Below are positions 39,453 to 54,863 of a DNA stretch of 64,000 nucleotides, in pieces (position 1 is the first letter of the stretch; each line of letters starts with the position of its first letter). Position numbers and translations under genes: made by a program. The notes under the pieces are model-generated. The model ran no database searches. It had not been told where the DNA came from and saw nothing but the letters and a program-made list of their open reading frames with translations. This DNA comes from Minisyncoccia bacterium (lineage in GTDB: Bacteria; Patescibacteriota; Minisyncoccia; Phycocordibacterales; Zambryskibacteraceae), in the NCBI GenBank assembly GCA_049651785.1, contig JBASCT010000022.1:44-64043 (forward strand), in the 5' to 3' direction.

Positions 39453-40646
39453 ATGAATAACGACCCCATTGGCAAGAATGGTAACGGGCTAGCTGATGTG
39501 GAACCAACTATTTTCAACCGTAATCAAAAATTAAAGAAACTTTTAATAATACTCTCTGCTTCTGTGTTGTTGAGTGTATTTATTTTATTTAAAAACGATA
39601 CCCCCTTTTCCTCTCGGCTTGTGCCGTCTGAGAAATTAGCACCACAATTACAAGAAGGCATCGACAATGCTAGTACTAGCGAACCTATAATACTAACCGC
39701 CCGAGGCGAGGGCGGCTATGTGATTAAGGATGGAATTCTTTATTACTTTTCTCGCGAGGTGCCCGGTGTTGATATTGCGACCCTTGAAGTTATTAACGAT
39801 TATTGGGTTAGGGATAAAAATAATGCCTATAATGGAGAAAAAATTTTTGACCATGATGAGGTAGATGTTGGGTCTCTTGAAATTCTTGATGGATATGTCA
39901 TCAAAGATAACAAAAATGTTTATTCCACTATTGGTGACAAACTACAAATTGTTCCAAATGTTGATATAACAAGCTTCCAATATGTTGGAACTTGTAAAGG
40001 GTTTTCAGGTGCCCGCGGCGAAAACTATTTTCGAGACAAGTTTAATATATACCATGCAACATATGGACAAGATTTCGCTCCAAATTTTTCGATTAAAAAA
40101 TTAGATTATATAGATACTTCATCGTTTCAATATTTAGGTTTTTACTCCCCCTTTGGACCAGGGGAGATACAGCCCTCGGTGCCCTACGCGAAGGATAAAA
40201 ACAATATCTACTATGCCTGCGGCGAGATTTTAAAAGACGCGGATCCAAATAGTTTTATAGACTTTACAGACGGTTATGCCAAGGATAAGTTAACGGTTTG
40301 GTATTTGGGCGAATTGATTGAGGGAGCAGATTCGGCGACATTTCAACCATTAACTACTAAATATTACCATAACGGATATTACTGGGGTGATTTTTACGCC
40401 AAAGACAAATCAAATGTTTACGTTGGAGGCCACGTTCTTGGTGACCTTGATCCCGCGACACTTGTAATTGTTGAAGGGTGGCTCCTGGAGGACCAAGTAT
40501 TTACTATCTACTTAAAAGATAAAAATTATGTTTACGCAGCTGCTGGTTACAAAGTAACTGGAGTTAATCCCACAGACTGTACTCCAGAAACATTCTCAAA
40601 GTGCAAAAACGATGATTACCAGAGATACAATCTAGGGCCCTTCTAG
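39453..40646 (+). CDS. DKNYY-repeat membrane-anchored protein
   Basis: N-terminal TM helix; at least seven repeats of (K/R)DKNN(I/V)YY-type units (KDKNNIYYA, KDKSNVYVG, KDKNYVYAA...). AT-richer than the flanking core genes. Confidence 0.65.
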   Translation: MNNDPIGKNGNGLADVEPTIFNRNQKLKKLLIILSASVLLSVFILFKNDTPFSSRLVPSEKLAPQLQEGIDNASTSEPIILTARGEGGYVIKDGILYYFSREVPGVDIATLEVINDYWVRDKNNAYNGEKIFDHDEVDVGSLEILDGYVIKDNKNVYSTIGDKLQIVPNVDITSFQYVGTCKGFSGARGENYFRDKFNIYHATYGQDFAPNFSIKKLDYIDTSSFQYLGFYSPFGPGEIQPSVPYAKDKNNIYYACGEILKDADPNSFIDFTDGYAKDKLTVWYLGELIEGADSATFQPLTTKYYHNGYYWGDFYAKDKSNVYVGGHVLGDLDPATLVIVEGWLLEDQVFTIYLKDKNYVYAAAGYKVTGVNPTDCTPETFSKCKNDDYQRYNLGPF

Positions 40647-40667
40647 TGCGCCCAGTAGCGGTCGAAC

Positions 40668-41498
40668 CTAGTTTTTAAAGGATTTAATTGCTTGAGCAAG
40701 CAGAATTTGTTTTTCCAAGGGTTTCTTCCAAACGCTATTTAAGCGTCTCCCATTCAATCTAACTCCCGGAGAAAAATTAATTTCTTCCTGAAACTTCTGC
40801 ATATTTTCTTTTCTGCTGATTACCACCTCGTTTGGTCTTAACACTCTCGATTCAATATTAAATTCCGAAAGAAGTTTTTGGATCAGAAAAAGTCTCGAGA
40901 CATCTTTTTGGTAGCCCCTTATTTGTCTTAAATTTCTCTTAGGCCTGAAATCCATGCAACCCTCATCATCAAAAAAAGCCCTAACAAACTCTTTTTTCAA
41001 AGCTTTGGGTAGTCGATAAATAACTTTCAGCAATTCTTTTGATTTTATTTGTAAATAAGCTCCTAGGGCCACGTTATGATAACTAATACGAGATACTCCC
41101 GTTGTTGTATTCACCCACCGCCGAGGCGGGTAATTGTAAATCTCTTTCATACAGTTTTCTACCATGTCGAGCAACGACTGATTTCGGTTGTTATAGACAC
41201 AGCTAGTCCTGCTTATTGTCCCATCAAAAATTAGATGAGCCACAAGCAAGACAGTTTTCTTCTCCCATCGGTCAAATTTCTTGAAATCCCTATCACTTTT
41301 TCCCCTTCTAGCTAAGGCAAGATTTTTTGCTCTGACACCACTAGCAGTACGAATTGATTTTATCTTTTCTGCGCCCAAGGGGATGTGGTGAATGTGAGAA
41401 TAAACTGAAGTTTTAGAGCGTCCGGTAATTTTTACTATTTCTGTTAAGGTGTGGCCCGACTTGCGTAAATTGAGGCAGCGCTTCTTAAAATTATTCAT
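40668..41498 (-). CDS. HTH + double-motif LAGLIDADG-like homing endonuclease family protein
   Basis: N-terminal HTH (LRKSGHTLTEIVKITGRSKTSVYSHI) and two LAGLIDADG-like motifs (LVAHLIFDGTIS; VRAFFDDEGCMDF). Start codon 2 nt from the tRNA-Lys 3' end. Confidence 0.65.
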   Translation of the reverse strand: MNNFKKRCLNLRKSGHTLTEIVKITGRSKTSVYSHIHHIPLGAEKIKSIRTASGVRAKNLALARRGKSDRDFKKFDRWEKKTVLLVAHLIFDGTISRTSCVYNNRNQSLLDMVENCMKEIYNYPPRRWVNTTTGVSRISYHNVALGAYLQIKSKELLKVIYRLPKALKKEFVRAFFDDEGCMDFRPKRNLRQIRGYQKDVSRLFLIQKLLSEFNIESRVLRPNEVVISRKENMQKFQEEINFSPGVRLNGRRLNSVWKKPLEKQILLAQAIKSFKN

Positions 41499-41499
41499 G

Positions 41500-41570
41500 T
41501 CCCCCCACCAGGAATCGAACCTGGATCAGCGGATTAAAAGTCCGTTGCTCTACCACTGAGCTATGGAGGG
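41500..41570 (-). tRNA. tRNA-Lys (anticodon UUU)
   Basis: Manual cloverleaf CCCTCCA-TA-GCTC-AGTGGTA-GAGC-A-ACGGA-CTTTTAA-TCCGC-TGAT-CCAGG-TTCGATT-CCTGG-TGGGGGG-A; no encoded CCA. Confidence 0.8.
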
Positions 41571-41673
41571 TTACCTTAATAGGATAACAGACGCAGGTTC
41601 TATTAATCTCACTTTCTGTGGATAATCACAAAAAGTTTTAAAACTATACCTAAAAACAAGACTTCTGTCGATA

Positions 41674-42078
41674 TTAAAGCGGTATATCTAGGGCGTAGCC
41701 ACCGGCTCCAGTTACAAGAAGAGAAAGCGAGATGACGAAAATGAATAGGTAGAAAACGACATCGCGTTTAAGAATCTCGCGCGCCTTCCATTCTATGTAA
41801 AGCTCAAGCCCTGAAAAAACTACGAAAGCAAGGGCCACCACTTGGGTCCAGAGGCCGATGATAAGAAAGAAGCCGCCGACAATCTGGAGCACTGCGTAGA
41901 AAGGCACGAAAAAATTTGCTGGTCGCAAGCCCAGAGCATCAAAACTCGAGAGCCAGCCCTCTTTTTCCCCGCGGAGCTTAAGAATACCGAGGTCGATGAA
42001 CAGAAGTCCGAGCACGAGGCGCAAAATAAGCGGCGCCAGAGCCGAATACATCAGGAGTTCGGGGAAAGGATTAAGCAT
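41674..42078 (-). CDS. DoxX-family membrane protein
   Basis: 134 aa, 4 TM; N-terminal LILRLVLGLLFIDLGILKL is typical of DoxX. Confidence 0.75.
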   Translation of the reverse strand: MLNPFPELLMYSALAPLILRLVLGLLFIDLGILKLRGEKEGWLSSFDALGLRPANFFVPFYAVLQIVGGFFLIIGLWTQVVALAFVVFSGLELYIEWKAREILKRDVVFYLFIFVISLSLLVTGAGGYALDIPL

Positions 42079-42103
42079 GTTATTTATAGTGAGCTTGTCG
42101 AAT

Positions 42104-42574
42104 CTATTTTAGCACAAAGAGGGCAACGCCCGCCGCAACCGAGACATTGAGCGAAAGGGAGTTGCCCGGCGTGCCTATTTCTACAATCTCATCGGAAAGT
42201 TCGAGCGTCTTTTTCTCGACACCCGCAACCTCGCTACCTACTATTAGGGCGAATTTTTCTTTGGCTTTGAAATTTTTAAGCTGTCCCGCCCGCAGGTCTT
42301 GTTCAAGAGCAATGATTTGGAAGCCGTCTTGTTTCAATTTTTTTACCGCCGATTCTGCCGTCTTCTCGTATTCCCAAGGCACTCTTTTTTCCGCGCCCAA
42401 GGACACCTTGGCGAAATCTTGGCGCGCCCTCCGGAAGCGGTCGAGGGGCGCGGGGGTTGTACCGACCAGAACTATTTTTGAGACTCCAAAACGGTCGGCG
42501 GTGCGGAAGATTGAGGCCGTATTCTCAACACTCCTGATATTTTCAAGCACCAAGATGGAAGTTCGGTTTGTCAT
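42104..42574 (-). CDS. SpoU/TrmH-family RNA 2'-O-methyltransferase
   Basis: SPOUT motifs LENIRSVENTASIFRTADRFG, LEQDL, LIVGSEVAGV and EIGTPGNSLSLNVSVAAGVALF. Start reassigned to internal Met so that the stop/start couples with mutM. Confidence 0.8.
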   Translation of the reverse strand: MTNRTSILVLENIRSVENTASIFRTADRFGVSKIVLVGTTPAPLDRFRRARQDFAKVSLGAEKRVPWEYEKTAESAVKKLKQDGFQIIALEQDLRAGQLKNFKAKEKFALIVGSEVAGVEKKTLELSDEIVEIGTPGNSLSLNVSVAAGVALFVLK

Positions 42575-43473
42575 TTGCCTGCCCGCCGACGAGGCGGGTA
42601 GAGTTTCTGGTGCTTGTTGCAGAAGTGAGTACTTCTCGAACCAATTACGAGGCGCTCCATTTTTCCTCGGCAGCCGGGTTTCAGACATCTTTCTCCCGTT
42701 CGCTGATAGGCCCTGTGATGGTTCTGAAACTTGCCCTTGCCACCCTCAATATTTCGGTAATCGGAGGTTGAGTCTCCACCAAGATCTAGGCCCTTGCGCA
42801 AAAGCTCTTTCATCGCCCGAAAAGAGAGCTTCAAATTTGTTTCCGGAATTTTATCCGGGTGGGAGAGAGGGTGAATTCCCGCCCGCCAGAGAATTTCGTC
42901 GGAATAAATATTACCGATGCCCGAGATTAAGCTCTGGTCGAGAAGAACCTGCTTAATTTTCCCCCTTGGGCGCAAGAGGAGACGCCTCCTGAAATCCGGG
43001 AAGCCAAAATTTTTATCCAAGGGTTCGGGTCCGAGGTTTTGGAGGTGCGGGGAACGGTGGAGCGCCTCTGTTCTGACAACAGTCACTTTGGCGAATTTTC
43101 GCAGGTCGGAGAATAACAGATCTTTGCTGTTGTCGAGGGCGAATTTCAGACGGACAAACTTGGTTTCCGGCCTGTCGTAGACGAAGTGCCCTGTCATTTT
43201 CATATGGACGATGATAGTTTCTCCGCCTGCTTGCCCCGAGCCCGGTTGAGGGGAGAGATGGATTAAGATGTTTTTTGCCCTTCTTTCTGCTCTAAGAATC
43301 TTTTTGCCCACGATGCGTCTCCTAAAATTTAGAAAAAACTTTGGATCCTTAATATTATCTTTGCCTTTGTGATACTCACTTCGGTAGTCAGTAGTAACGC
43401 TAAGGATTTTCTTTCCTTTTACCGTTCTGTTTAGTCCTTTGACCGTAGTTTCTACTTCCGGCAGCTCAGGCAT
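42571..43473 (-). CDS. mutM: Formamidopyrimidine-DNA glycosylase
   Basis: MPELPEVETT N-terminus (catalytic P2/E3) and C-terminal zinc finger CLKPGCRGKMERLVIGSRSTHFC. Confidence 0.9.
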   Translation of the reverse strand: MPELPEVETTVKGLNRTVKGKKILSVTTDYRSEYHKGKDNIKDPKFFLNFRRRIVGKKILRAERRAKNILIHLSPQPGSGQAGGETIIVHMKMTGHFVYDRPETKFVRLKFALDNSKDLLFSDLRKFAKVTVVRTEALHRSPHLQNLGPEPLDKNFGFPDFRRRLLLRPRGKIKQVLLDQSLISGIGNIYSDEILWRAGIHPLSHPDKIPETNLKLSFRAMKELLRKGLDLGGDSTSDYRNIEGGKGKFQNHHRAYQRTGERCLKPGCRGKMERLVIGSRSTHFCNKHQKLYPPRRRAGK

Positions 43474-43479
43474 ATACTT

Positions 43480-44082
43480 TTAACTCTTCTTAACTCCGAT
43501 GTAGGATTTGATCTTGCGATCACCGCTTACAGCGAAAGCAATGGATCTCATATTGCCGTCGTCAAGCTCCCAGCGCATTTTTTTCAACCCTTTTCTATTG
43601 ACCGGACTCGGACCTCTTTCGATCACTATGGGCAAGGAATATCGGTCTTTTTTTATAATCTTTTTGAGATTAATAATAATTGGAACGACGCGCCTGGCTC
43701 TTTTGTTAAGAAGCCCGCTACCTGACTCAAGAGCTTTTCTAACCATTTTTCCAGTATGCGCCAGTGAATTATCTGTCCAAGAAACAGGGAGTCCGCCAGC
43801 TCTTTTCCAAACCCCCACTTCTTTGGTTAAAAGCTCACCTACATACCAGTCAACTTTTTGATAAGCAACAAGCCTCTTTTTCCAGCTGCCGATAATTTTA
43901 TCCAGTTTTTTCTCCGGCAGTTTTCTTAGCGCCTTGTAGGCTCGGGCTCTTGCCAGCAAATATTTTTTAACTGGGGGAATTTTTTTATCATTTTTTTTAG
44001 CAACACCGTATTTCCGGAGAAATTCTGTTAAAAGAAAAGTTCTCTTAACCTCAATACCGCCAACTCTTCTCATTAACTTCAT
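43480..44082 (-). CDS. Lys-rich hypothetical protein between ruvA and mutM
   Basis: 200 aa, coupled to ruvA (overlapping stop/start); no confident family. Confidence 0.45.
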   Translation of the reverse strand: MKLMRRVGGIEVKRTFLLTEFLRKYGVAKKNDKKIPPVKKYLLARARAYKALRKLPEKKLDKIIGSWKKRLVAYQKVDWYVGELLTKEVGVWKRAGGLPVSWTDNSLAHTGKMVRKALESGSGLLNKRARRVVPIIINLKKIIKKDRYSLPIVIERGPSPVNRKGLKKMRWELDDGNMRSIAFAVSGDRKIKSYIGVKKS

Positions 44083-44654
44083 GATCTTGCAGAAAGCAGT
44101 TTGAGGGCGGCGCGGACTCGCTCAGAGACACCCTTAATATCCTTAGAAACTTTTTTCAACGCCTCGCGAGCATCACGTTCGCTGTAGCCGAGAGAGACCA
44201 GAGCCTCGAGGGCGTCTCCTTCCGAGCGGGTGTCGAGGCCGCCGTCCTCTTTGGTTATCTTCAGCTTGTCTTTGAGCTCCAAGACAATTTTCTCCGCGTT
44301 CTTTTTACCGATACCGGAGACGCGCGTCAGGTATGAAGTGTCGGAGCTCGCCACGGCCTGCCGAAGCGTTTGCGGACTCGCAACGTTGAGAATGTTTAGC
44401 GCCGTCTTCGGCCCAATGCCCGAAATCGTTATCAGAAGCTCAAAAGTATCCAAGGTTTCTTTGTCGATAAACCCGTACAAATCAAGAGCGTTTTCCCGCA
44501 CGGCCAAATGCGTCCAGAGAAAAATTGGCGCCCCCACCGTTGCCTCAAGCGCGGTCTCAGCCGTGACGGCCGTGCGGTAGCCGACCCCCGAGACCTCCAC
44601 TACCAGCGAGCCGAGACCTCTGCTTTTTACCGTACCGTTAAGCGAGCCTATCAT
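44079..44654 (-). CDS. ruvA: Holliday junction DNA helicase RuvA
   Basis: 191 aa; MIGSLNG N-terminus, HhH motifs (LITISGIGPKTALNIL; LTRVSGIGKKNAEKIVLEL). Confidence 0.9.
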   Translation of the reverse strand: MIGSLNGTVKSRGLGSLVVEVSGVGYRTAVTAETALEATVGAPIFLWTHLAVRENALDLYGFIDKETLDTFELLITISGIGPKTALNILNVASPQTLRQAVASSDTSYLTRVSGIGKKNAEKIVLELKDKLKITKEDGGLDTRSEGDALEALVSLGYSERDAREALKKVSKDIKGVSERVRAALKLLSARS

Positions 44655-44697
44655 CGTCTTGTCATTATAAATGAAAGTCTGCTAAGATGCTCTCACT

Positions 44698-44958
44698 ATG
44701 GCAATTACGCAAAGCGCGAAGAAAGCCCTGCGAGTCTCGAAAAGGAGGCGAGTCTTTAATCTGCGCCGTAAAAGCGAAGTCGAGCGCGCCGTAAAATCTT
44801 TCAAAAAACTCCTAGCTTCTGGCGATAAAAAGGGGACTCTGGAAGCCATGCGCCAGGTTCAGAGTGCTCTGGATAAGGCGGTCAAAGGCAAAACCTTGAA
44901 GAAAAACAACGCCGCGCGCAAAAAGTCTCGCCTTTCAAAGCTCTTGAAGAAGCTATAA
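44698..44958 (+). CDS. rpsT: 30S ribosomal protein S20
   Basis: 86 aa; MAITQSAKKALRVSKRRRVFNLRRKSEVERAVK is S20-like. Confidence 0.85.
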   Translation: MAITQSAKKALRVSKRRRVFNLRRKSEVERAVKSFKKLLASGDKKGTLEAMRQVQSALDKAVKGKTLKKNNAARKKSRLSKLLKKL

Positions 44959-44992
44959 ACTGGAACTGTTCATCTGCGTCTACCAGAGACAA

Positions 44993-45066
44993 GCTCTCAT
45001 CGTTCAATGGATAGGACATAACTTTGCGGAAGTTAAAATGTAGGTTCGATTCCTACTGAGAGCACC
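44993..45066 (+). tRNA. tRNA with anticodon GCG (Arg, decoding CGC/CGU)
   Basis: Manual cloverleaf GCTCTCA-TC-GTTC-AATGGATA-GGAC-A-TAACT-TTGCGGA-AGTTA-AAAT-GTAGG-TTCGATT-CCTAC-TGAGAGC-A-CC; G37 is consistent with a CGN decoder. Confidence 0.65.
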
Positions 45067-45537
45067 TTAGAATCCGAAATACTCGAGAATTTTTTCTACA
45101 AACGGGAGAGCGTGGAACTCTTCTTTTAGAACCGAAGAAAGATTCTCGTGGAGTTCGTCGGCGTCGATTTCATCATTTAAGGGTACGATGATAAGGGGCA
45201 TGAGCATTTTTTGCGACTTGAGAATTATCTTTTTATGAGGATGCTCGACATCTATCCAAAAAGATTCGAGGGTGGAATAAGGATAAAATACCTTGCCGCG
45301 CACAAGACCCTTCTCGTCGACCGCCACATGGACATTGTTCGGCGGACGCTTGGCAAAGAGGGAGAGGGCGAAGGCGCCGACCAGAATCAGAATACCGAGG
45401 ATAATATTTTTGAAAATTATTGCGGCAACCGCGAGAGCAACAGCGACAATTCCGACCGCCCAGAACCAGTCTGAACTCCTAACTTTATGTTCGTATTCGT
45501 GGGCGTCCCACTCCATTCTGAAAGAGGGTCGTGGCAT
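45067..45537 (-). CDS. Membrane hypothetical protein
   Basis: 156 aa; two TM helices after HEYEHK; no family recognised. Confidence 0.45.
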   Translation of the reverse strand: MPRPSFRMEWDAHEYEHKVRSSDWFWAVGIVAVALAVAAIIFKNIILGILILVGAFALSLFAKRPPNNVHVAVDEKGLVRGKVFYPYSTLESFWIDVEHPHKKIILKSQKMLMPLIIVPLNDEIDADELHENLSSVLKEEFHALPFVEKILEYFGF

Positions 45538-45580
45538 AGATGGAAAAATTATATCATAATCAATATAACAAGATTACAGC

Positions 45581-46336
45581 ATGACCGAAGTACTTCTTTA
45601 TTCCGTCCTCGTGATGCTTGCCTCCCTTGTCGGCGTTTTCGCTGTCTGGCGCAACGTCGGCCGCCTTATCGAGCGCAATCTTAGCCTTTTGGTAAGTCTC
45701 TCGGCGGGCGTCTTTGTTGTCATAACTTACAACCTGATGAAGGAAACCATGGAGCACTCGAGCGGAGTGACAGAGGGGCTCGCCTGGATTCTCGGCGGAG
45801 CTTTCTTCTTCTGGCTGCTTTTTAAACTGGCACCCCTCTTCCACCACCACCACGATGCCAGCAGAGAAACGACTCCGCACTCTCGGATAGATGCGCGCCG
45901 GGTTATGGCCGGAGATGCCCTGCACAATTTCAGCGACGGCCTTCTGCTTGCCGCCTCTTTTGGGGTCAGCTCTGCCTTCGGTGTCTTAACCGCCTTGAGT
46001 ATTTTTGTTCACGAACTGGTGCAGGAGATGTCGGAGTTTTTTGTTTTGAAGCAGGCGGGCTACCAGACCAAGAAAGCGCTTATTTCCAATTTCGCCATAT
46101 CCTCGACAATTTTACTCGGCTCGCTTGTTGGGTTTTTCCTTATAGATAATTTTGAAATGTTCGAGGTACCGCTTCTGGGGCTGACAGCTGGCGCCTTCCT
46201 TGTTGTCGTCCTCGATGACCTTATTCCGCATTCAATCCGCGCCTCTAGATTAACTCAATTCTATGCCAGACACCTCGCTTGGTTTGTCATCGGGCTCGTT
46301 TTAATGTTTGTTGTTAGCTCTTTTGTTACACCCTAA
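45581..46336 (+). CDS. ZIP-family divalent metal transporter (ZupT-like)
   Basis: 251 aa; His-rich loop LFHHHHDA, conserved HNFSDGL and HELVQE motifs. Confidence 0.8.
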   Translation: MTEVLLYSVLVMLASLVGVFAVWRNVGRLIERNLSLLVSLSAGVFVVITYNLMKETMEHSSGVTEGLAWILGGAFFFWLLFKLAPLFHHHHDASRETTPHSRIDARRVMAGDALHNFSDGLLLAASFGVSSAFGVLTALSIFVHELVQEMSEFFVLKQAGYQTKKALISNFAISSTILLGSLVGFFLIDNFEMFEVPLLGLTAGAFLVVVLDDLIPHSIRASRLTQFYARHLAWFVIGLVLMFVVSSFVTP

Positions 46337-46337
46337 C

Positions 46338-46422
46338 TGGCGGAGGGTAGAGGACTCGAACCTCTAAGGGCTTTCACCCGCCGGTTTTCAAGACCGGTGC
46401 CATACCGTTAGGCGAACCCTCC
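46338..46422 (-). tRNA. tRNA-Ser (anticodon UGA), CCA encoded
   Basis: Manual fold GGAGGGT...CCGGT-CTTGAAA-ACCGG, long variable arm, T-arm AGAGG-TTCGAGT-CCTCT, ACCCTCC-G-CCA. Confidence 0.8.
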
Positions 46423-46434
46423 AATTAAGTTACT

Positions 46435-46671
46435 TTACTCGGTTTTTTCAATTACTTCCACCTTATATTTTCGTGCCACAAGAGAGTAGTAAATAATTTC
46501 GAGAACGCCGAAAGTGTTGATTATGAAAATAGCAACGAACCAATATTTATGTCTCAGACCTGCCGCGGTCCATAAAGCGAACCCCTTCCAGGCAAGAGAC
46601 CAGATTACCAGTAGAGCAATTGCCGCAAGCTCCGTCGGGCTGAACTGGGACAAAATTTCGAGCAAATTCAT
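46435..46671 (-). CDS. Small two-TM membrane protein (hypothetical)
   Basis: 78 aa; two hydrophobic helices. Confidence 0.4.
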   Translation of the reverse strand: MNLLEILSQFSPTELAAIALLVIWSLAWKGFALWTAAGLRHKYWFVAIFIINTFGVLEIIYYSLVARKYKVEVIEKTE

Positions 46672-46703
46672 GTTAATTCCCCAATTGTACTATAATTTCC
46701 CTA

Positions 46704-47078
46704 ATGAGACTTATGGCGATAGATTATGGCTCCAAGCGCGTCGGTATCGCCTCAACCGATGAGACCGGGAGGTTTGCTCTGCCGCGCGCCGTCTGGCCAA
46801 ACGACGACAAGCTTCTTGATAAGATTCTTGAGTTTAAGGAGAAAGAGGGGGTAGAGAAGATCGTCATCGGCGAATCTAAAAATTTTAAAGGTGGGCCCAA
46901 CCCCATTCAGAAAGAAATAGAAGAATTTAAAAAAACTCTTGAGGCGCTGGGAATCTCCGCGGTCTACCATCCCGAAATAATGACAACAGTTGAAGCAAGA
47001 CGGATTCAGGGTAATACGGAGTTCACGGACGCCTCGGCCGCCGCGCTTATCCTCAGGAATTTCCTTGATGCTGTATAA
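46704..47078 (+). CDS. ruvX: YqgF/RuvX RNase H-fold nuclease (putative pre-16S rRNA nuclease)
   Basis: 124 aa; MRLMAIDYGSKRVGIA with conserved D/E residues. Confidence 0.85.
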   Translation: MRLMAIDYGSKRVGIASTDETGRFALPRAVWPNDDKLLDKILEFKEKEGVEKIVIGESKNFKGGPNPIQKEIEEFKKTLEALGISAVYHPEIMTTVEARRIQGNTEFTDASAAALILRNFLDAV

Positions 47079-47087
47079 TAAATCCGT

Positions 47088-48086
47088 ATGGCGGTACTTT
47101 TGAGACGCAGAAGTTTAATGGACTTTTTCCCCGTGCCCGAGTTCATGCTTCTCTCGATGACGGGGATTGTTATAACCGACGACGACACTCGTTTTGTCGA
47201 GCTGAAGCGAGGCCTTTTCGGCGACGGCTTCGAGCTGGTGCACGCAAGCAAGGCCGCCAACCCCAAGGGTGCTGTTGAGTCGGGGCTTATTGTTAGTCCG
47301 CAAAATCTTGCCCCAGTGGTCAAAAAGCTCTCTGAGCACTACGGGGTACGATACGCCCGAGCCGTCCTACCGGAAGAGCGGGCCTACCTTTTCACCACCA
47401 CGATAGACTGGGTCCCGCGCGAAGGTTTGAGAGATGCCGTGGCTTTCATTATCGAAGAAAATGCGCCGGTGTCTCTCGCTGAATCCGTATTTGATTTCGA
47501 AGTAATAAATTCCGACCGAGGAGCGGGGGAGATAAAGCTTGCCGTCTCCGTTGTGCCGAAAGAGATTACAAAAAGTTACGAAGGCCTTCTGGAATCCGTG
47601 AACATCACCCCAATCTCTTTTGAGCTCGAATCGCAAGCTGTTGCCCGCGCGGTTATTCACCGCGAGGATAAGCGCCCGCAACTTATAATAAATTTGTCTC
47701 TCAAGAAAACAGGTTTTTATGTCGTCGAGGACGGCGTGGCCCAGTTCAGCACCACACCGGTATTTGGCATCGGTGCCGACGGTGCTTACGCCAATCTGGC
47801 AGACCTTCGAGCCGAGATGAGGAAGGTTATTACTTTCTGGAATGTTCGTACCGACAAAGAAGGCCGGCCGGGGAAGAAAATAGAACAAATCGTTCTCTGC
47901 GGCCAAGGAACAAATGACCCGGCCTTTGTCGACAAGCTCATGGAAGGAAGTGAAGTGGATCACCAGCTTGCTGACGTCTGGCTCAACCTCTCTTCTTCAC
48001 GCGACGCGACCCCGCCGATCCCTTTTGAGGAATCGCTTGGCTACACTCCGGCTATCGGTCTGGTCCTGCCGCGTCGAAACGAATAA
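47088..48086 (+). CDS. pilM: PilM-like type IV pilus assembly protein (actin-like fold candidate)
   Basis: 332 aa; cytoplasmic protein directly upstream of two bitopic PilN/PilO-like genes. Assigned mainly by context. Confidence 0.55.
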   Translation: MAVLLRRRSLMDFFPVPEFMLLSMTGIVITDDDTRFVELKRGLFGDGFELVHASKAANPKGAVESGLIVSPQNLAPVVKKLSEHYGVRYARAVLPEERAYLFTTTIDWVPREGLRDAVAFIIEENAPVSLAESVFDFEVINSDRGAGEIKLAVSVVPKEITKSYEGLLESVNITPISFELESQAVARAVIHREDKRPQLIINLSLKKTGFYVVEDGVAQFSTTPVFGIGADGAYANLADLRAEMRKVITFWNVRTDKEGRPGKKIEQIVLCGQGTNDPAFVDKLMEGSEVDHQLADVWLNLSSSRDATPPIPFEESLGYTPAIGLVLPRRNE

Positions 48087-48088
48087 AT

Positions 48089-48619
48089 ATGCTTAAACTC
48101 TTAACAGACGAGGGCAGAGAAAAAGTTTCCGAGGAGTACAAAGTACGCCGAGTGGTCGTTATTATTTTGGCGCTTATCGTCATTACGATTATAACTATTA
48201 TCGGACTTTTGCCGTCATATGTTCTCTCAGACAGCCGCGAAGAAGAAGCACTCGCTCGTCTGCGACTCACCGAATCTGGCGGCCAGAAAGAGGGACAAGA
48301 GCTTCGCACCTGGCTTGCCGAGACCAATAAAAGACTCTCAACCATCGCGCCGAACCTTGACACCGACAAGCCCTCCAATTTCATCGCGCGCGCCATAGCC
48401 CTAAAGCCCTCGGGTATAAAAATCACCAGTTTTTCCTGGACCAAGGCAAAGGACAAAGTCACCCTTTCTCTTAGTGGTACGGCCCTGGACCGACAGACTT
48501 TGGTACGCTTCGAAAACGAGATAGAGGCGTCGGGTCTTTTCTCTGACATTACTCTGCCGATTTCTGATCTCGCCAAGGATCGCAATATCGGTTTCCAGAT
48601 AAAATTCTCGCCGATATGA
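48089..48619 (+). CDS. PilN-like bitopic pilus assembly protein
   Basis: 176 aa; N-terminal TM helix then periplasmic domain. Confidence 0.5.
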   Translation: MLKLLTDEGREKVSEEYKVRRVVVIILALIVITIITIIGLLPSYVLSDSREEEALARLRLTESGGQKEGQELRTWLAETNKRLSTIAPNLDTDKPSNFIARAIALKPSGIKITSFSWTKAKDKVTLSLSGTALDRQTLVRFENEIEASGLFSDITLPISDLAKDRNIGFQIKFSPI

Positions 48620-49137
48620 CAAACAAAAGCTCAAAACCGATTCTCATTCTCCTCCTAATTATTTTTGCCGCCCTCATTGCGGTATTGGTCTTCGGCATTC
48701 TTGACATCAGGACAAAGAACACGGAAATCTCAAGATTGGTCAACGAGGCGGATCAGGCGGTCGAGAATGAAAGACTCATCCAGTCCATAAAGGAACTCCA
48801 GAACGAAGCGGCCGGGAATCTTGAAGCCTTTGGTCAGGCGGTCTTTATGGACGACAAGCTTGTCCCTCTTATCGAGATGATAGAGGGGCTAGGCAGAAGT
48901 TTGGGCCTCGAGACGAGGATTGCTTCCGTTTCAGAGATAGAAGATAAAAAGTCGGCCGAGCCCAAAATTATTAAAATTACAATTGAGGCAACCGATGGTT
49001 CTTGGAGTTCGGCCTTCTCTTTTTTGAGAGCGATAGAAAACTTGCCGCATAGAGTTATGGTAGAAGACGCCAGTCTTTCTAAAGAAGGGGATGACTGGCG
49101 CCTGCGCCTGACCATCTCTCTCTACTCATTCAAATAA
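48616..49137 (+). CDS. PilO-like bitopic pilus assembly protein
   Basis: 173 aa; TM helix + coiled coil + C-terminal domain; overlapping stop/start. Confidence 0.45.
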   Translation: MTNKSSKPILILLLIIFAALIAVLVFGILDIRTKNTEISRLVNEADQAVENERLIQSIKELQNEAAGNLEAFGQAVFMDDKLVPLIEMIEGLGRSLGLETRIASVSEIEDKKSAEPKIIKITIEATDGSWSSAFSFLRAIENLPHRVMVEDASLSKEGDDWRLRLTISLYSFK

Positions 49138-49138
49138 C

Positions 49139-49462
49139 ATGGAAGAAAAGAAAAACATATTTAACATAAGCGGCAAACTCCACATCCATTTTCTCCATTG
49201 GGGGAGGAGTCCGGAGAGGGATTGGAAGATAATATTTGTCTTTGCCACCATTTTCGTTTTCTGCTCCATCGCCACGAGCGCTTTTATCTTCGTCAAAATA
49301 GACAGAGGCGAAATATTCCTTGCTGAAAAAGTTAACGAAGAATCTGGAGAAACTCTCGACTTTAAAAAACTCGAAGAAACGGCTTCGTACTATAAAAACA
49401 AAGAACTCGAATTGGAAAAAATTATAAGGTCAAAACCGCAGTACGTTGACCCGTCGCTCTGA
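49139..49462 (+). CDS. Small membrane protein (PilP-position gene)
   Basis: 107 aa; one TM helix. Confidence 0.4.
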   Translation: MEEKKNIFNISGKLHIHFLHWGRSPERDWKIIFVFATIFVFCSIATSAFIFVKIDRGEIFLAEKVNEESGETLDFKKLEETASYYKNKELELEKIIRSKPQYVDPSL

Positions 49463-49484
49463 TAAAGCTACGATTGAGGCACCT

Positions 49485-49556
49485 GTCCCCGTAGCTTAAT
49501 GGATAAAGTAGAGCTCTTCTAAGGCTTTGATGCAGGTTCGATTCCTGCCGGGGACA
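49485..49556 (+). tRNA. tRNA-Arg (anticodon UCU)
   Basis: Manual fold GTCCCCG-TA-GCTT-AATGGATA-AAGT-A-GAGCT-CTTCTAA-GGCTT-TGAT-GCAGG-TTCGATT-CCTGC-CGGGGAC-A. Confidence 0.75.
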
Positions 49557-49622
49557 CAAATTGACTTCTCTCTTCCAGAGTGCTATTTTCGCCTCTAGCC
49601 TAACTATTTTGGGGAGAGACAA

Positions 49623-50261
49623 ATGGAATCTCCGAATGTGTTACCGTTCTTTGACGATCCCGGAAAATTTTTCGGCAATTGTGATATCGGCGATAAGGAG
49701 GCGCCACGCCACATAGTCGAGGCCCAAGAGCCCCGGTACCAGTACCACGCGATTCTGACAAAGGATGTTGGGCAAGTTTCTGGAGAAGACTTCCTTCGAT
49801 ACACGAGACGCCTTGTTGCAATCTGCTACCGCGTTTACCGAAGGGCGGAATGGGAACTGACCGCCGATTCAAGGGGTCCGATTAGTTTCTATATTTCCTC
49901 GAGTGGGAAGTATCAGAAACCGCCGTACTTTACGAATGACGTGAGCCAGCTCAACGAGAAGGTTTTCTTGGCGATGTTCAGGATGTCGTACTTCATGAAG
50001 CTTCGTGTCAATCAGAGGCCTATCTCTGGTCGGCAACCAAGCTCTTACGCCAAGATTTTCTGGCATTGTTACAAACCCGACATGCTCTTCGTGGCGGCCA
50101 GGCGCGACCATCGTGATGACTATCGAGGTACGGCCGCCGCCCTTGAGGGTCTGCTTTCTCGGAAATTTCTCTATGTTCCGAAAATGGCACCAACCGATGG
50201 CTTCTCCGTGGATCTCGGCATGGACATCTACAACAGGGAAGAAATGGAATTGCCTTCCTGA
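49623..50261 (+). CDS. Hypothetical protein immediately downstream of tRNA-Arg
   Basis: 212 aa; no recognisable family. Confidence 0.45.
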   Translation: MESPNVLPFFDDPGKFFGNCDIGDKEAPRHIVEAQEPRYQYHAILTKDVGQVSGEDFLRYTRRLVAICYRVYRRAEWELTADSRGPISFYISSSGKYQKPPYFTNDVSQLNEKVFLAMFRMSYFMKLRVNQRPISGRQPSSYAKIFWHCYKPDMLFVAARRDHRDDYRGTAAALEGLLSRKFLYVPKMAPTDGFSVDLGMDIYNREEMELPS

Positions 50262-50302
50262 TTTTCGACACAGGGCGTCCAACGATAGGGCGCTCTTTCT
50301 TT

Positions 50303-51004
50303 TTACAAACTTATCTCTCGAACGGATTGATTGCGATGAATTAGTTCGTCATTTCTGACGGAGAGGAAAAATTCGTACTGGTTTCTTGGGTTCCTGCCGT
50401 ACCAACGCAGGAATTCGCTCTCAACCGGTTTTTTCTTCAGCTCCTCGCCTCGGGTTTCGAGAAATTTTGAGTATTGTTCAAATGCGTGTTGTTCGAAAAG
50501 ATAATTAAGCTCGAGAGACGCCCTGGGGCTGAAAAGGTACAAAAGGTAAGAGGTCCAGAAATAGAAGAAAGCGAAAAGCATCGGCACAAAAGTGTGTCTA
50601 AGGAAGCCGGCCCTCTTCTCTTTTTTTGCCAATTGCGTTATGACGATTACATGCATGGTCTCGTTGTCTTGCGCTAGGCGGGCGTAGCGCGTGACATTTG
50701 AGAGTCGGAGGGCGCGTTTCTCATCCGAATAAAACATTGTAAGAAGTGTATAGGCGACCGAGGACCAAGAGTGGTAGGGAACACGGGCGATAACTTCCAC
50801 GGCACGAAATTTCAGATAAGACGGCTTGAAGCCGTAGAAAAGATTGCCGCAATTAACGAGAAAACCCCCGAGAATCTGGGGCAGGAATCCGGGGCGGTAG
50901 CTGTCGAAAGGTTTTTTATAAGCTTCGAGTTGTTCCGGGTTATTGAGTTCTAGGTTGAGCGCTTCTAACCCTGGTTTATCTTTTGGTGTATCCATTAGAA
51001 ACAT
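50303..51004 (-). CDS. Alternative oxidase / plastid terminal oxidase family di-iron carboxylate protein
   Basis: All four AOX iron-binding helices are present: EVIARVP (LETVAAVPG-like), NETMHV (NERMHL-like), EQHAFEQY (EEEAIHSY-like), RNDELIHRN (RADEAHHRDVNH-like). The track's longer GTG start at 51106 lies inside tRNA-Leu and is rejected. Confidence 0.75.
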   Translation of the reverse strand: MFLMDTPKDKPGLEALNLELNNPEQLEAYKKPFDSYRPGFLPQILGGFLVNCGNLFYGFKPSYLKFRAVEVIARVPYHSWSSVAYTLLTMFYSDEKRALRLSNVTRYARLAQDNETMHVIVITQLAKKEKRAGFLRHTFVPMLFAFFYFWTSYLLYLFSPRASLELNYLFEQHAFEQYSKFLETRGEELKKKPVESEFLRWYGRNPRNQYEFFLSVRNDELIHRNQSVREISL

Positions 51005-51025
51005 TATAACTGACAAAGTTACTAC

Positions 51026-51112
51026 TGGTGCCGAGGAGGAGATTTGAACTCCTACGAGGGTTCCCTCACTGCGTTCTGAACACAGCGTGTCTACCAATTT
51101 CACCACCTCGGC
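51026..51112 (-). tRNA. tRNA-Leu (anticodon CAG)
   Basis: Manual fold GCCGAGG-TG-GTG-AAATTGGTAGA-CAC-G-CTGTG-TTCAGAA-CGCAG-long variable arm-AGGAG-TTCAAAT-CTCCT-CCTCGGC-A-CCA. Confidence 0.8.
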
Positions 51113-51120
51113 TTTGCTAG

Positions 51121-51194
51121 TGCGCGCTGAGGGATTTGAACCCCCGGCCTACTGTGTGTAAAACAGTCGCTCTAACCAACTGAGCTAAGCGCGC
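51121..51194 (-). tRNA. tRNA-Val (anticodon UAC)
   Basis: Manual fold GCGCGCT-TA-GCTC-AGTTGGTTA-GAGC-G-ACTGT-TTTACAC-ACAGT-AGGCC-GGGGG-TTCAAAT-CCCTC-AGCGCGC-A. Confidence 0.8.
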
Positions 51195-51275
51195 GTGCTT
51201 CAGTTATACACTATTATTCTTAAAGCAACAATATTAGACTGGAGTAACTCATACTAGGTATGTTATACTTTACTT

Positions 51276-51944
51276 ATGAAAGTTAAAGAAAGAGAACATG
51301 CTCGTAAGTTGCGGAAAAAAGGCAAGTCAATGAACCAAATTATTGAAGAAACTGGATATTCTAAGGCTAGTGTAAGTTTTTGGACTCGTGACATTAAGCT
51401 AACTCCTTATCAAAAAAATAAGATATCGTTGCGAGGAAGGAGTATTGAATCAATTGAGAGAAGAAGAGAGAGTCGCCTTGCAAATATAGCAAATAAAAGG
51501 CGGGAGATAATAGACTTGGCAAAAGGAGATTTTACGAGTCTAACCATAAGGGAACTAAAATTAGTAGGAGCTATGATTTACTGGGGGGAAGGTAGAAAGG
51601 CCGGAAACTGGACTGTTAGTTTGGCAAATAGCGATCCGTTAATTATTAAGGTTATGATGAGATTTTTTCGGGAAGTGTGCAAGGTGCCGGAGGAAAAATT
51701 TCGTGGACATATACACACTTTTGAAAATGCTACGATATCTAAGACTGAAAGATACTGGTCCGAAATATCTGGTATACAACGAAAACAGTTTTATAAAACA
51801 TATACAAAGCCAAGCAAAGGAGGTTTGCAAAAAAGACAAACATTACCCTACGGGACCCTAGACATATATGTCAATGACACAAAATTATTTCTTACAATTA
51901 AGGGGTGGATTGAGAAAATTGCTGAATTAGCCATAAATTCATGA
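51276..51944 (+). CDS. HTH + LAGLIDADG-like protein, paralogue of the 40668..41498 gene
   Basis: N-terminus LRKKGKSMNQIIEETGYSKASVSFW aligns with LRKSGHTLTEIVKITGRSKTSVYSHI of the tRNA-Lys-adjacent gene. Motif LVGAMIYWGEG corresponds to LVAHLIFDGTI. Confidence 0.5.
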   Translation: MKVKEREHARKLRKKGKSMNQIIEETGYSKASVSFWTRDIKLTPYQKNKISLRGRSIESIERRRESRLANIANKRREIIDLAKGDFTSLTIRELKLVGAMIYWGEGRKAGNWTVSLANSDPLIIKVMMRFFREVCKVPEEKFRGHIHTFENATISKTERYWSEISGIQRKQFYKTYTKPSKGGLQKRQTLPYGTLDIYVNDTKLFLTIKGWIEKIAELAINS

Positions 51945-52699
51945 TTGACCTATCTAAAAATATTCTTTACGAAGACTCCGACTTGCTGGTGATAAACAAG
52001 CCAGCTGGACTCGTGGTGCACCCAGACGGTAGGACCAAAGAGCCGAGTGTCTCGGAGTGGTTTGAGAAAAAATTTCCCGAAGCGCGCAGCGTGGGCGAGC
52101 CCTTAGAGCTTGAAACAGGAGAAATTTTAGAACGCACGGGGGTGGTACATCGGATAGACCGAGAAACTTCTGGGGCCCTAATTCTTGCTAAAACAAAAAA
52201 AGGACACGCGGCGCTCAAAAAACAATTCCAAAATAGAGAGGTTTCAAAAATTTACCACCTTTTTGTCGCGGGCGACCTCAAGCGTGACCAAGGCACGATT
52301 GATTTGGCGATAGGCAGAAGTATTAATGACTTCCGCAAACGCTCGGCAGAACGCATTACTCGAGGCGAGAAAAGAGAAGCCCTGACGCACTTCAGAGTGC
52401 TTAGGAAACCATCCGATAAGACCTCCACTTTCGTGGAAGCAAGACCAAAAACAGGTCGAACCCATCAGATTAGAGTTCATTTCAAAGCTATTGGACACCC
52501 GGTTGTTGCCGATAAACTTTACGCGCCGAAAGGGAAATCGATTCTTGGATTCAAGAGACTAGCACTCCACGCTCGTGCCGTAACTTTCAAAAATCTCTCC
52601 GGTCAAGAAGTTGCCGTCGAAGCGCCGTACCCAGAAGATTTCGAACAAGCACTTTCTGGTCTAAAAGAAAACGCCCCGCATCACTTGGGGGCGTCTTGA
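51941..52699 (+). CDS. RluA-family pseudouridine synthase
   Basis: 252 aa; LVINKPAGLVVHP and catalytic HRIDRETSGALILAKT motif. Confidence 0.85.
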   Translation: MIDLSKNILYEDSDLLVINKPAGLVVHPDGRTKEPSVSEWFEKKFPEARSVGEPLELETGEILERTGVVHRIDRETSGALILAKTKKGHAALKKQFQNREVSKIYHLFVAGDLKRDQGTIDLAIGRSINDFRKRSAERITRGEKREALTHFRVLRKPSDKTSTFVEARPKTGRTHQIRVHFKAIGHPVVADKLYAPKGKSILGFKRLALHARAVTFKNLSGQEVAVEAPYPEDFEQALSGLKENAPHHLGAS

Positions 52700-53379
52700 G
52701 GAGCGAGTTCAAGCTCGCACTGAGTATGATTGTCGGAATGGAGACATCCGGCGAAGTGCTCAGAGGCGATGCTGTAGGCGGCTCTAGCCGCTTTACGAGG
52801 GGGTCGCTTGTGACCGTCTCGTGCGCGTTCGCCAGTTAGAACAATGTTATTTTCCGTCTTCGTTACCCGGAGCTCACCACTCGGGTGCAAATAAAAGCCG
52901 AAGAGGTACGGGGACCAGGCGCGTCTTTTGAACCTGACTGTGACTTTTGACTTATCTTTCGGATCAACGGTCAGCACGTGCTCATGAAGAGACTTGATGC
53001 TATCCAGGTCCTTTTCAACCTCAAGAAAACCAAGAACTTCTGCGAGCATCTTTTGGTACAGTTCGTACGGCACATCTACCGCCACCCGTAGGCCGGACGG
53101 CTCGATGCGCCCATGACGGCGTCTTTCTATGTCTTCACCGCTCTCGCTGTCCTCATTGACGAGCCAGTTGATGAAATAGTAATCGCCAAGACACTCTCCC
53201 ACGACTTCTATCATGCTCATGAGGTCGCCATAGCCAGGCAGCTTGAAGCGGCGCTCGACAAACTTCACCCCAACTGCTGGAGGCCAGTTTTCCGATTTCA
53301 CAAAGTACTCCTCTAAAACCGTTCCGCTCGCCAATATAGCAGAAACGGCTTCCGCCGAGTAATGGACACTGGCGGCCAA
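52681..53379 (-). CDS. Hypothetical protein
   Basis: 232 aa; no confident family. Confidence 0.4.
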   Translation of the reverse strand: MAASVHYSAEAVSAILASGTVLEEYFVKSENWPPAVGVKFVERRFKLPGYGDLMSMIEVVGECLGDYYFINWLVNEDSESGEDIERRRHGRIEPSGLRVAVDVPYELYQKMLAEVLGFLEVEKDLDSIKSLHEHVLTVDPKDKSKVTVRFKRRAWSPYLFGFYLHPSGELRVTKTENNIVLTGERARDGHKRPPRKAARAAYSIASEHFAGCLHSDNHTQCELELAPQDAPK

Positions 53380-53393
53380 AATGTGTTAGATTA

Positions 53394-53795
53394 TTGCCCA
53401 CTGCCGTTATGAAAATAATGAGTCCAGTCAATATCGAAGAGAGGCAAAAACTCGACATCCGAGCGGGCGACACTGTCCGTGTCTGGCAAAAAATATTGGA
53501 AAAGGGCAAGACCCGCTTGCAGGCCTTTGAGGGCCTGGTTCTTGCCACTAAACACGGCAAGGAGGCAGGGGCAACCCTAACTTTACGCCGTACTGCCTCG
53601 GGCGTTGGGGTTGAGAAAATTTTCCCGCTCTACTCTCCCGTAATCGACAAAATTGAAATCGTTAAGCGCTCAAAGGTCCGCCGAGCCAAGCTCTATCACA
53701 TCAGAGAAAAGGCGACCAAGGAGATCAGTCGCCAGATGAGAAATGTCCGCATGGCGAAAGACGAAGAGGTGGCAGCTGAGGCGGAAGCGAAGTAA
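53394..53795 (+). CDS. rplS: 50S ribosomal protein L19
   Basis: 133 aa; FRAGDTVRV...RLQAFEGLV...HGKEAGATLTLRR...GVEKIFPLYSP signature. Confidence 0.9.
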   Translation: MPTAVMKIMSPVNIEERQKLDIRAGDTVRVWQKILEKGKTRLQAFEGLVLATKHGKEAGATLTLRRTASGVGVEKIFPLYSPVIDKIEIVKRSKVRRAKLYHIREKATKEISRQMRNVRMAKDEEVAAEAEAK

Positions 53796-53827
53796 GATTG
53801 AAACACGCCCTCCTTCGCCGAGGCTTC

Positions 53828-53911
53828 GGACGGGCAATGCGCGGGTGGCGAAATTGGTAGACGCACTACCTTGAGGTGGTAGCGCTGGCAACGGCGTGGA
53901 GGTTCAAATCC
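53828..53911 (+). tRNA. tRNA-Leu (anticodon GAG)
   Basis: Manual fold GCGCGGG-TG-GCG-AAATTGGTAGA-CGC-A-CTACC-TTGAGGT-GGTAG-long variable arm-GGAGG-TTCAAAT-CCTCT-CCCGCGC-A. Confidence 0.75.
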
Positions 53912-53924
53912 TCTCCCGCGCACT

Positions 53925-54473: not shown

Positions 54474-54487
54474 AACGGAGAATTAAT

Positions 54488-54560: not shown

Positions 54561-54570
54561 AAGATACAAA

Positions 54571-54860: not shown

Positions 54861-54863
54861 GAG

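Follow-up and report, generated by a model that had tools for sequence, protein, structure and literature searches.

A LAGLIDADG gene that begins one base past the tRNA-Lys(UUU) gene of a Minisyncoccia bacterium (contig JBASCT010000022.1) is, on balance, probably a free-standing homing endonuclease gene whose target is the tRNA-Lys 3′ boundary; it would be transcribed together with the tRNA and translated from a leaderless mRNA generated by tRNA 3′ processing. Comparison of related loci shows the fixed home of the putative element to be the 3′ boundary of tRNA-Lys(UUU) in a subset of Parcubacteria (Minisyncoccia/Paceibacteria). The stretch analyzed (hereafter the window) is 64 kb long, and all coordinates are positions in it. 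The two genes at the center of the argument are as follows.

41499–41570, minus strand: tRNA-Lys(UUU) gene, complete and uninterrupted (ARAGORN; Rfam RF00005 at 71.6 bits; reading of the sequence)
40668–41498, minus strand: free-standing LAGLIDADG endonuclease gene, 276 amino acids, GC content 0.381 (Pfam, alignment, AF2 and Foldseek)

The minus strand at the junction reads ...CCTGG-TGGGGGG-A-C-ATG, corresponding to T-stem, 3′ strand of the acceptor stem, discriminator, C74 and start codon. The tRNA body occupies 41500–41570, with the discriminator A73 at 41500; C74, at 41499, is the single base between the discriminator and the endonuclease ATG at 41498, and CCA is not encoded. The first-pass annotation had placed a LAGLIDADG gene with a helix-turn-helix (HTH) directly behind tRNA-Lys(UUU) on the same strand, and the junction sequence, Pfam, and the AF2 and Foldseek results all agree with that placement. 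An alternative start farther upstream for the open reading frame (ORF) was rejected: the upstream frame is tRNA and has no in-frame start codon, and conservation sets in at Met1. Also rejected was a promoter within the tRNA or a Shine-Dalgarno (SD) sequence in the acceptor strand, the tRNA being constrained and the acceptor strand, at 3–4 nucleotides (nt), too close and paired in the precursor.

The abutment recurs throughout the family. A homologue-locus scan, with one genome per species, returned 80 of 101 confirmed loci (L001–L080), and a same-strand tRNA-Lys(UUU) is the nearest upstream feature in all 78 related loci with upstream sequence, a recurrence that, judged from these loci, is far beyond chance. 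With discriminators located by acceptor pairing before spacers were measured, tRNA and start codon are 1 nt apart at 55 of 79 loci and 0–6 nt apart at 69 of the 79; the junction is A73-C followed directly by ATG in 53 of the 79 (53 of the 55 with a 1-nt spacer). Because one base leaves no room for a promoter or an SD sequence, the main clade admits no reasonable reading but co-transcription of tRNA and endonuclease gene, as proposed at the first pass and as we infer from the spacing. Ten loci lie outside the 0–6-nt range. Seven of these, which are distant (L060, L062, L064–L067, L071), have spacers of ~22–34 nt with a TATAAT- or TACAAT-like −10 box 7–9 nt before the start codon, and this distant clade would likewise make a near-leaderless mRNA. 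In the promoter-bearing clade an inverted repeat, TGGTAC...GTACCA, lies on either side of the −10 box and reaches as far as the start codon; the N-terminal HTH may use it as an operator for autoregulation. A separate 157-amino-acid ORF of unassigned function (5335–5808) lies between tRNA-Lys and endonuclease gene in L069 (5105–5991), and the endonuclease there has a GTG start and the motif FFDDEGS. Spread over ~100 species-level genomes and with synonymous sites saturated, the arrangement is, by the sequence evidence, not recent.

The tRNA of the window was aligned to 78 related ones. Its acceptor pair C1-G72 is unusual (the functional acceptor is CCCTCCA/TGGGGGG), and its D and variable loops are short ('type B'). 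C1 is paired to G72 in ~60% of the tRNA-Lys(UUU) genes of L001–L080, a pairing that is unusual among bacterial elongator tRNAs. There are two tRNA-Lys length types, 'B' of 71–73 nt and 'A' of 73–76 nt, which are mixed among close relatives such as L016 and L018.

Features of the window beyond this locus also bear on expression. SD-like motifs precede only 3 of the 46 window ORFs of at least 200 amino acids; CCA is encoded in two of its eight tRNAs, which lie within 41499–54560, and A73-C74 is followed by a base other than C in four of the eight. The organism thus seems suited to leaderless expression defined by tRNA processing. A literature search returned nothing on leaderless translation in Patescibacteria.

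On the evidence of its sequence and an AF2 model, the ORF product is a monomeric, two-domain, I-DmoI-like LAGLIDADG enzyme that retains both catalytic acidic residues. It matches Pfam LAGLIDADG_3 (PF14528) at 28.5 bits (E 1.9e-6), above the cut-off of 22.5 bits; Pfam matches to an HTH at residues 4–54 are weak and sub-threshold. An alignment of 25 homologues served to assess residue conservation. The motifs HLxFDG (here HLIFDG, with D92-G93) and FFDDEGC (E179-G180) are invariant, as is RGYQK at 194–198; conservation begins at Met1, mean column identity is 61%, and length is near-constant. A check of the catalytic acidic residues, as suggested at the first pass, therefore finds D92 and E179 retained. 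The AF2 model (pLDDT 91) shows three HTH helices and a long helix in residues 1–65 and a two-domain I-DmoI-like core from about residue 80 to 276, the helix/strand order being a doubled alpha-beta-beta-alpha-beta-beta-alpha. Foldseek against PDB matched the TliVMA intein endonuclease domain, I-DmoI, WhiA (3hyi/3hyj), I-Tsp061I and PI-PfuI at E 2e-7 to 9e-6, and the bI3 maturase was also among the fold matches; identity to solved structures is 11–18%. A sequence search of PDB gave only spurious matches to RGS10 (E>0.04), and placing the protein needed structure prediction.

A protein database search yielded 491 homologues. Among the 120 best, from which details were taken, nearly all are ~276 amino acids long and 55–86% identical, and the named ones come from Parcubacteria/Minisyncoccia/Kaiserbacteria. 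The family is small, since a hidden Markov model search of 1.84 billion cluster representatives found 87 clusters at E≤1e-30. A tblastn search of a phage collection with the endonuclease gave no match, and NCBIfam gave weak overlaps with intein domains, far under the cut-offs, and no specific model. The Pfam scan of the ORF, which has its own start and stop, detected neither a GIY-YIG domain nor Hint domains; a search with Rfam at a threshold of E≤1 found no intron family in 36–46 kb, and the tRNA is uninterrupted.

Presence of the gene at the site is patchy, as emerged from the comparison of related genomes that had been recommended at the first pass. A tRNA-anchored scan of a metagenome collection, with a pattern that runs from D-arm to discriminator only and is blind to downstream content, gave 120 loci (L081–L200). 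Four of them carry the endonuclease, all with the junction A-C-ATG and one truncated, and ~27 of those without it share the neighbors of occupied loci (~4 occupied of 31 syntenic). The shared neighbors are DoxX, SpoU, Fpg and RuvA on one side and, on the other, holA_C and polA, or 'geneX' in a Kaiserbacteria-like group. Empty loci with the same neighbors imply that tRNA-Lys at this position is ancestral and the endonuclease an optional addition. Endonuclease-less loci moreover nest among occupied ones in PolA-based clustering, where empty L184 and L152 are at a distance of 0.17–0.18 from occupied neighbors and L174 at 0.16. Within the loci sampled, these comparisons show that the endonuclease gene is polymorphic for presence and absence, while the site around it is syntenic.

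Empty sites read ...GGGCG(C/G)-A-C-A-A, most empty tRNA-Lys alleles in relatives having A-C-A-A, and continue with an A-rich terminator hairpin or directly with the stop codon of the neighbor. The downstream flanks of empty L184 and occupied L054 and L020 are 75–78% identical, and only the ORF differs. With slashes marking the borders, the empty junction of L184, which retains an encoded CCA, is cgggcgcA CCAACTAA/TAACTAAACGC, and the occupied one is cgggcgcA C/ATG...TAG/TAGCTAAACGC. This alignment shows the insertion to be a bare ORF that starts at tRNA position 75, with no untranslated sequence at either end; its far end coincides with the next feature or falls a few bases short of it. The empty-site consensus is informative on the tRNA side only, giving tAGGTTCGAttCCTactGGGCGcA/CAA as the predicted target; the endonuclease-less tRNA-Lys allele of the L127/L128 type has the sequence GTAGGTTCGATCCCTACTGGGCGCACAG.

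Other features of the site vary among relatives. Flanked by polA/holA_C and DoxX/SpoU, the tRNA-Lys gene, with or without the endonuclease gene, can point either way with respect to these neighbors: one orientation occurs in the window, L001, L002, L125 and L146 and the other in L034, L038, L041, L127 and L174, implying repeated local inversion. Endonuclease-less L196 (~8400–8665) has an 18-nt perfect direct repeat of its own tRNA 3′ end (CGAGTCCTTCCGGGCGGA) ~180 nt downstream, with an inverted T-arm copy between tRNA-Lys and the repeat; the repeat could have been left by an insertion since lost, or could be a different small element that targets tRNA genes. Downstream of tRNA-Lys in several empty loci (L119, L127 and L162) a motif recurs, GTGCGAGCCGCAGCGATG... 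with ...ATTATCCGTGACCAC, which looks like a small dispersed repeat. In L099 and L137, on other CPR-like contigs (CPR, candidate phyla radiation), a bL25-like gene, identified by eye, starts 4 nt past the tRNA-Lys discriminator.

The far boundary of the endonuclease gene is marked by a second copy of the tRNA 3′ end, and beyond it lies a gene for a DKNYY-repeat protein.

40646–40669, minus strand: displaced tRNA-Lys 3′ third, comprising T-arm, acceptor 3′ strand, A and C, with the sequence AGGTTCGACCGCTACTGGGCGCAC (score 16; shuffled maximum 11)
39453–40646, plus strand: DKNYY-repeat protein gene, 397 amino acids, with an N-terminal hydrophobic segment (Pfam DKNYY, E 1.8e-28)

The first-pass annotation had advised looking for a duplicated tRNA 3′ segment, and this remnant is such a segment. 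Its 5′ end overlaps the endonuclease stop codon and its 3′ end overlaps the DKNYY stop codon by one base, and the repeat formed by tRNA 3′ end and remnant brackets the endonuclease ORF alone. When all 79 loci were scored against shuffled controls (shuffled maximum 11–12), recognizable tRNA 3′ thirds were found right after the stop codon in six, namely the window, L001, L011, L051, L073 and L077, with scores of 14–20; three of the six include CCA. The remnants resemble alleles other than those they accompany. That of the window has the common TGGGCGC acceptor, matching the adjoining functional type B tRNA poorly, and is identical at 22 of 24 positions to the 3′ end of the endonuclease-less tRNA-Lys of L127; the L011 remnant is 22/22 identical to L087 and the L077 remnant 25/28 identical to L163, both being endonuclease-less alleles from other lineages. 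Remnants of other allele types indicate that recombination brought in the ORF, overwriting the greater part of a resident tRNA-Lys and displacing its 3′ third downstream.

The history of the gene was compared with that of PolA, encoded 1–4 kb away on the same contigs, in simple distance trees (neighbor-joining, 200 bootstraps) rather than by full reconciliation. PolA groups L012 with L028 and L016 with L018 in 200 of 200 bootstraps; the endonuclease tree recovers neither grouping in any of its 200 and instead pairs L003 with L016 in 198. Such conflict with a linked housekeeping gene indicates that the endonuclease gene has moved between lineages, and the sister hosts L016 and L018 carry different tRNA-Lys types. 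The proportion of synonymous differences (pS) is 0.6–0.9 and that of nonsynonymous differences (pN) 0.07–0.27 (pN/pS 0.12–0.33); saturated synonymous sites with low pN imply that the protein has long been kept functional. Disrupted endonuclease copies occur in L059, L079 and L081. GC is ~0.38–0.39 in the endonuclease and DKNYY genes as against 0.49 in the window, and in 77 of 77 loci the flanks exceed the endonuclease gene in GC (0.51 vs 0.41), so that low GC is a trait of the gene family and not the mark of a fresh acquisition. The life cycle of a homing endonuclease predicts just this combination of a fixed site, relatives with empty alleles, conflict between trees, purifying selection and occasional decay. 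On what the gene is and where it sits, the comparative evidence is strong.

The mechanism we propose has four steps. First, the main-clade gene, having neither promoter nor ribosome-binding site of its own, would be transcribed from the tRNA-Lys promoter as a tRNA–mRNA precursor. Second, endonucleolytic 3′ processing of the tRNA, presumably of the RNase Z type, followed by CCA addition would free the tRNA and leave an mRNA that starts at AUG or one base before it (C-AUG), to be translated leaderless, with no SD sequence. Third, the protein would cut insertion-free tRNA-Lys genes in or near the T-arm/acceptor end, and repair from the occupied allele would copy the ORF and co-convert the tRNA in part or in full, so that the old 3′ third stays behind as a scar. 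Fourth, the N-terminal HTH may add DNA-binding specificity or autoregulation. A target that spans the T-arm/acceptor end and the first trailer bases, and is interrupted by the ORF at 74/75, would fit best; since the remnants start at the T-arm, this may be where breaks or conversion tracts end. A more far-reaching version, less likely than not, we advance tentatively: the mobile unit would be the tRNA-Lys allele together with the endonuclease gene, and repair after a T-arm/acceptor cut would overwrite the single essential tRNA-Lys(UUU), making the element a natural gene drive. Expression would then depend purely on hijacked tRNA transcription and 3′ maturation, which would yield a leaderless mRNA in a bacterial parallel to mitochondrial tRNA punctuation, and the displaced 3′ third would persist because it serves as the downstream homology arm.

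Several observations weigh against a homing endonuclease. Cleavage, target site, transcript and RNA processing are matters that we infer rather than observe. Pairwise identities of endonuclease and PolA are correlated (r = 0.57), and in no pair does endonuclease similarity greatly exceed that of PolA, so that most inheritance looks vertical, with transfers old or rare. Strong purifying selection with constant length would also fit a protein that benefits the host. Occupied and empty tRNA bodies show no systematic base differences above lineage noise, and immunity of occupied alleles must therefore come from the interruption at 74/75. Conservation is poor beyond the empty site, on its downstream side; the occupancy of 13% comes from a small, pattern-limited sample; remnants rise above shuffled controls in just 6 of 79 loci; and intact-looking remnants apparently escape re-cutting, which the homing model leaves unexplained.

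Some of these observations would be expected of a domesticated host protein, that is, an old LAGLIDADG-HTH gene inherited vertically in an operon with tRNA-Lys, whose absences are secondary losses and whose proposed roles include regulator of the tRNA-Lys promoter, repair nuclease, and RNA chaperone or maturase. Strong purifying selection at saturated synonymous sites, near-constant length with 61% mean column identity, the positive correlation with PolA identity, and a position conserved over ~100 species all agree with domestication, and the fold matches include LAGLIDADG proteins that are not nucleases, WhiA and the bI3 maturase. We nevertheless consider it unlikely, though a serious alternative. 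Only ~4 of 31 syntenic loci in the unbiased sample carry the gene, with empty loci nested among occupied ones; both catalytic acidic residues are invariant, unlike those of WhiA; and bootstraps strongly back the conflict with PolA encoded on the same contig. Remnants from foreign tRNA alleles and pseudogenized copies likewise sit poorly with domestication, as does the encoded CCA of empty L184, which simple deletion of the ORF would not restore.

Less probable still is a static relic, an ORF that escaped from a group I intron of an rRNA or tRNA gene or from an intein, landed here once, and has since been immobile and read through from the tRNA promoter. Such an origin would be in keeping with the best fold and profile matches, which are intron and intein endonucleases, and with the abundance of LAGLIDADG ORFs in CPR rRNA genes (PMC11270868). 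No intron RNA was detected by Rfam even at a threshold of E 1, however, which makes 'escaped intron ORF' at most a conjectural origin story. An immobile relic should also decay, yet the gene is under purifying selection; its tree conflicts with that of the host marker, and the foreign-allele remnants imply later recombination.

The first-pass annotation had offered two options, an escaped intron-encoded endonuclease and a small integrated islet of the endonuclease and DKNYY genes at the tRNA. tRNA 3′ ends are classic att sites, and a direct repeat of the tRNA 3′ end and the low GC of both genes are what an integrase-type islet bounded by an att repeat would leave; we regard such an islet as very improbable. 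The repeat encloses the endonuclease ORF only, with DKNYY beyond it, and the remnant is of another allele type, where a fresh att duplication would have copied the tRNA end exactly. Nearly all relatives lack DKNYY at this site (in L002, the end of holA_C is 51 nt past the endonuclease gene), while the endonuclease is constant among them. Among ORFs in 39.4–41.6 kb there is no integrase or recombinase, the nearby ORFs being DKNYY, holA_C and DoxX by Pfam, which leaves att-type integration without its enzyme. The two-gene version is refuted by the DKNYY gene's position outside the repeat, its convergent orientation and its absence in nearly all relatives, and DKNYY was rejected as cargo on the same three grounds. 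The presence of a DKNYY gene, as first annotated, is borne out, and its supposed place after the endonuclease gene in one transcript is not, since it lies on the plus strand, convergent with that gene. From its position and distribution, and with a best homologue at 39% identity, DKNYY is an unrelated, lineage-specific neighbor outside the putative element.

Upstream of the tRNA lies an intergenic leader whose features, as read from the sequence and its conservation in relatives, are as follows.

41571–41673, minus strand: intergenic leader with two promoter-like elements, predicted to drive the tRNA–endonuclease transcript
41671–41643, minus strand: distal element, TCGACA (41671–41666), 17 nt, TATAGT (41648–41643), a 10/12 match
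41617–41625, minus strand: TTATCCACA, the DnaA-box consensus, between the two promoter-like elements and the only perfect copy in the window
41602–41581, minus strand: proximal element, TAGAACC (41602–41596), 10 nt, TATCCT (41586–41581), 10 nt before tRNA position 1

The architecture of the leader is kept upstream of tRNA-Lys in many related loci. The window, L001, L002, L032 and L036 share TCGACA-17-TATAGT, then TTATCCACA or TTATACACA, then TAGAACC-N10-TATAAT-N10-tRNA, and the spacing from the DnaA-type box to the −10 box varies between 20 and 30 nt among the nearest relatives. The box is perfect in L001 and has one mismatch, at a similar position, in L002, L032 and L036. By our estimate ~0.5 perfect copies of TTATCCACA are expected by chance in 64 kb on both strands. 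The first-pass annotation is thus right about a perfect DnaA box at 41617–41625; the second, overlapping box that it described does not exist within one mismatch. A replication origin or DnaA-regulated locus is hardly credible, even with a perfect box conserved in L001 and nearly so in three relatives and with near-matches enriched across the window (22 vs 8.7 expected), because the box is single, with no cluster within 3 kb, near-matches are dispersed and the nearest is >2.8 kb away, there is no GC-skew switch at the locus, and the neighbors are DoxX, SpoU and polA, with no match to dnaA or dnaN among the nearby ORFs tested with Pfam. By these sequence features the DnaA-type box is not an origin.

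Elsewhere in the window, 53839–54473 on the plus strand holds a tRNA-Leu(GAG) gene that ends ...CCCGCGC-A-C and is followed by one T and then ATG, so that an ORF starts 2 nt past the tRNA; this ORF (53925–54473) is a PduO-type cob(I)alamin adenosyltransferase gene (Pfam E 1.6e-44). That ORFs generally abut tRNAs was considered and rejected, the tRNA-Leu case being the one other credible instance within 3 nt among 75 tRNAs of the related loci. In 54489–55130, also on the plus strand, a GIY-YIG ORF (54597–55130; Pfam E 2.8e-15) lies 37 nt downstream of tRNA-His and may be another nuclease gene parked at a tRNA. The stretch 10888–12411 has a GC of 0.375 and includes an IS200-like Y1 transposase ORF (10888–11541); four near-DnaA boxes occur there within 1.4 kb, at 11025, 11156, 11457 and 12403.

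The closest precedent for the system proposed here is SegB of phage T4, a free-standing GIY-YIG homing endonuclease encoded in a tRNA gene cluster, which recognizes a T-psi-C stem-loop motif and whose homing co-converts flanking tRNA genes (PMC2330249). Both are free-standing endonuclease genes among or beside tRNA genes, and the remnants that begin at the T-arm, the tRNA allele that appears to travel with the ORF, and a consensus informative on the tRNA side only may extend the likeness. The present gene differs in encoding a LAGLIDADG protein, whose activity is predicted, on a CPR chromosome, in being tied to one tRNA species and one position (74/75), and in having no promoter of its own in the main clade. 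A literature search returned no description of a tRNA-Lys-linked free-standing LAGLIDADG gene in CPR.

Other known systems share single features with it. I-DmoI, I-Tsp061I and the CPR rRNA-intron ORFs have the same two-domain monomeric fold and D...E pair, which in I-DmoI is D21/E117, and CPR is a group rich in such genes; they differ in that here there is no intron or intein, an N-terminal HTH module of ~80 residues is added, and the boundary is that of a tRNA rather than an rRNA. The CPR rRNA-intron LAGLIDADG ORFs include LAGLIDADG_3 types with N-terminal extensions (PMC11270868). WhiA resembles the present protein in combining a LAGLIDADG core with an HTH, as well as in fold (3hyi/3hyj). 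In WhiA the catalytic acidic residues are lost and the HTH is C-terminal. The present protein keeps D92 and E179 without exception and has its HTH at the N-terminus, and its gene has a patchy distribution, occurring in a minority of syntenic loci. Mitochondrial tRNA punctuation is similar in that an ORF start abuts a tRNA 3′ end and tRNA processing would set the mRNA 5′ end; here the setting is a bacterial chromosome, the arrangement is not a genome-wide rule, and processing is presumed. The atp6 element of Allomyces is an endonuclease element that carries a replacement 3′ end of its target gene. As with elements of this type and with tRNA-integrating elements, the target gene here remains whole and its displaced 3′-end copy is found beyond the insertion, but there is no integrase, the insert is a single ORF, and the displaced end is that of a different allele.

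If confirmed, the gene would be a bacterial chromosomal, free-standing LAGLIDADG homing endonuclease dedicated to a tRNA gene boundary, for which the closest case so far is a GIY-YIG enzyme in phage T4. The family (~90 clusters at 50% identity, ~276 amino acids, monomeric) would add compact, rare-cutting nucleases with a predictable, conserved target. Confirmation would also provide a testable bacterial case of an mRNA that owes its 5′ end to tRNA 3′ processing and has no leader when translated, a case that bears on translation start in CPR bacteria, here almost devoid of SD motifs. Finally, a selfish element would be shaping the evolution of a single-copy essential tRNA, an effect that could explain why close relatives have a mosaic of tRNA-Lys types and unusual C1-G72 acceptors, and the patchy presence of the gene makes the tRNA-Lys locus a handy recombination marker among uncultivated Parcubacteria.

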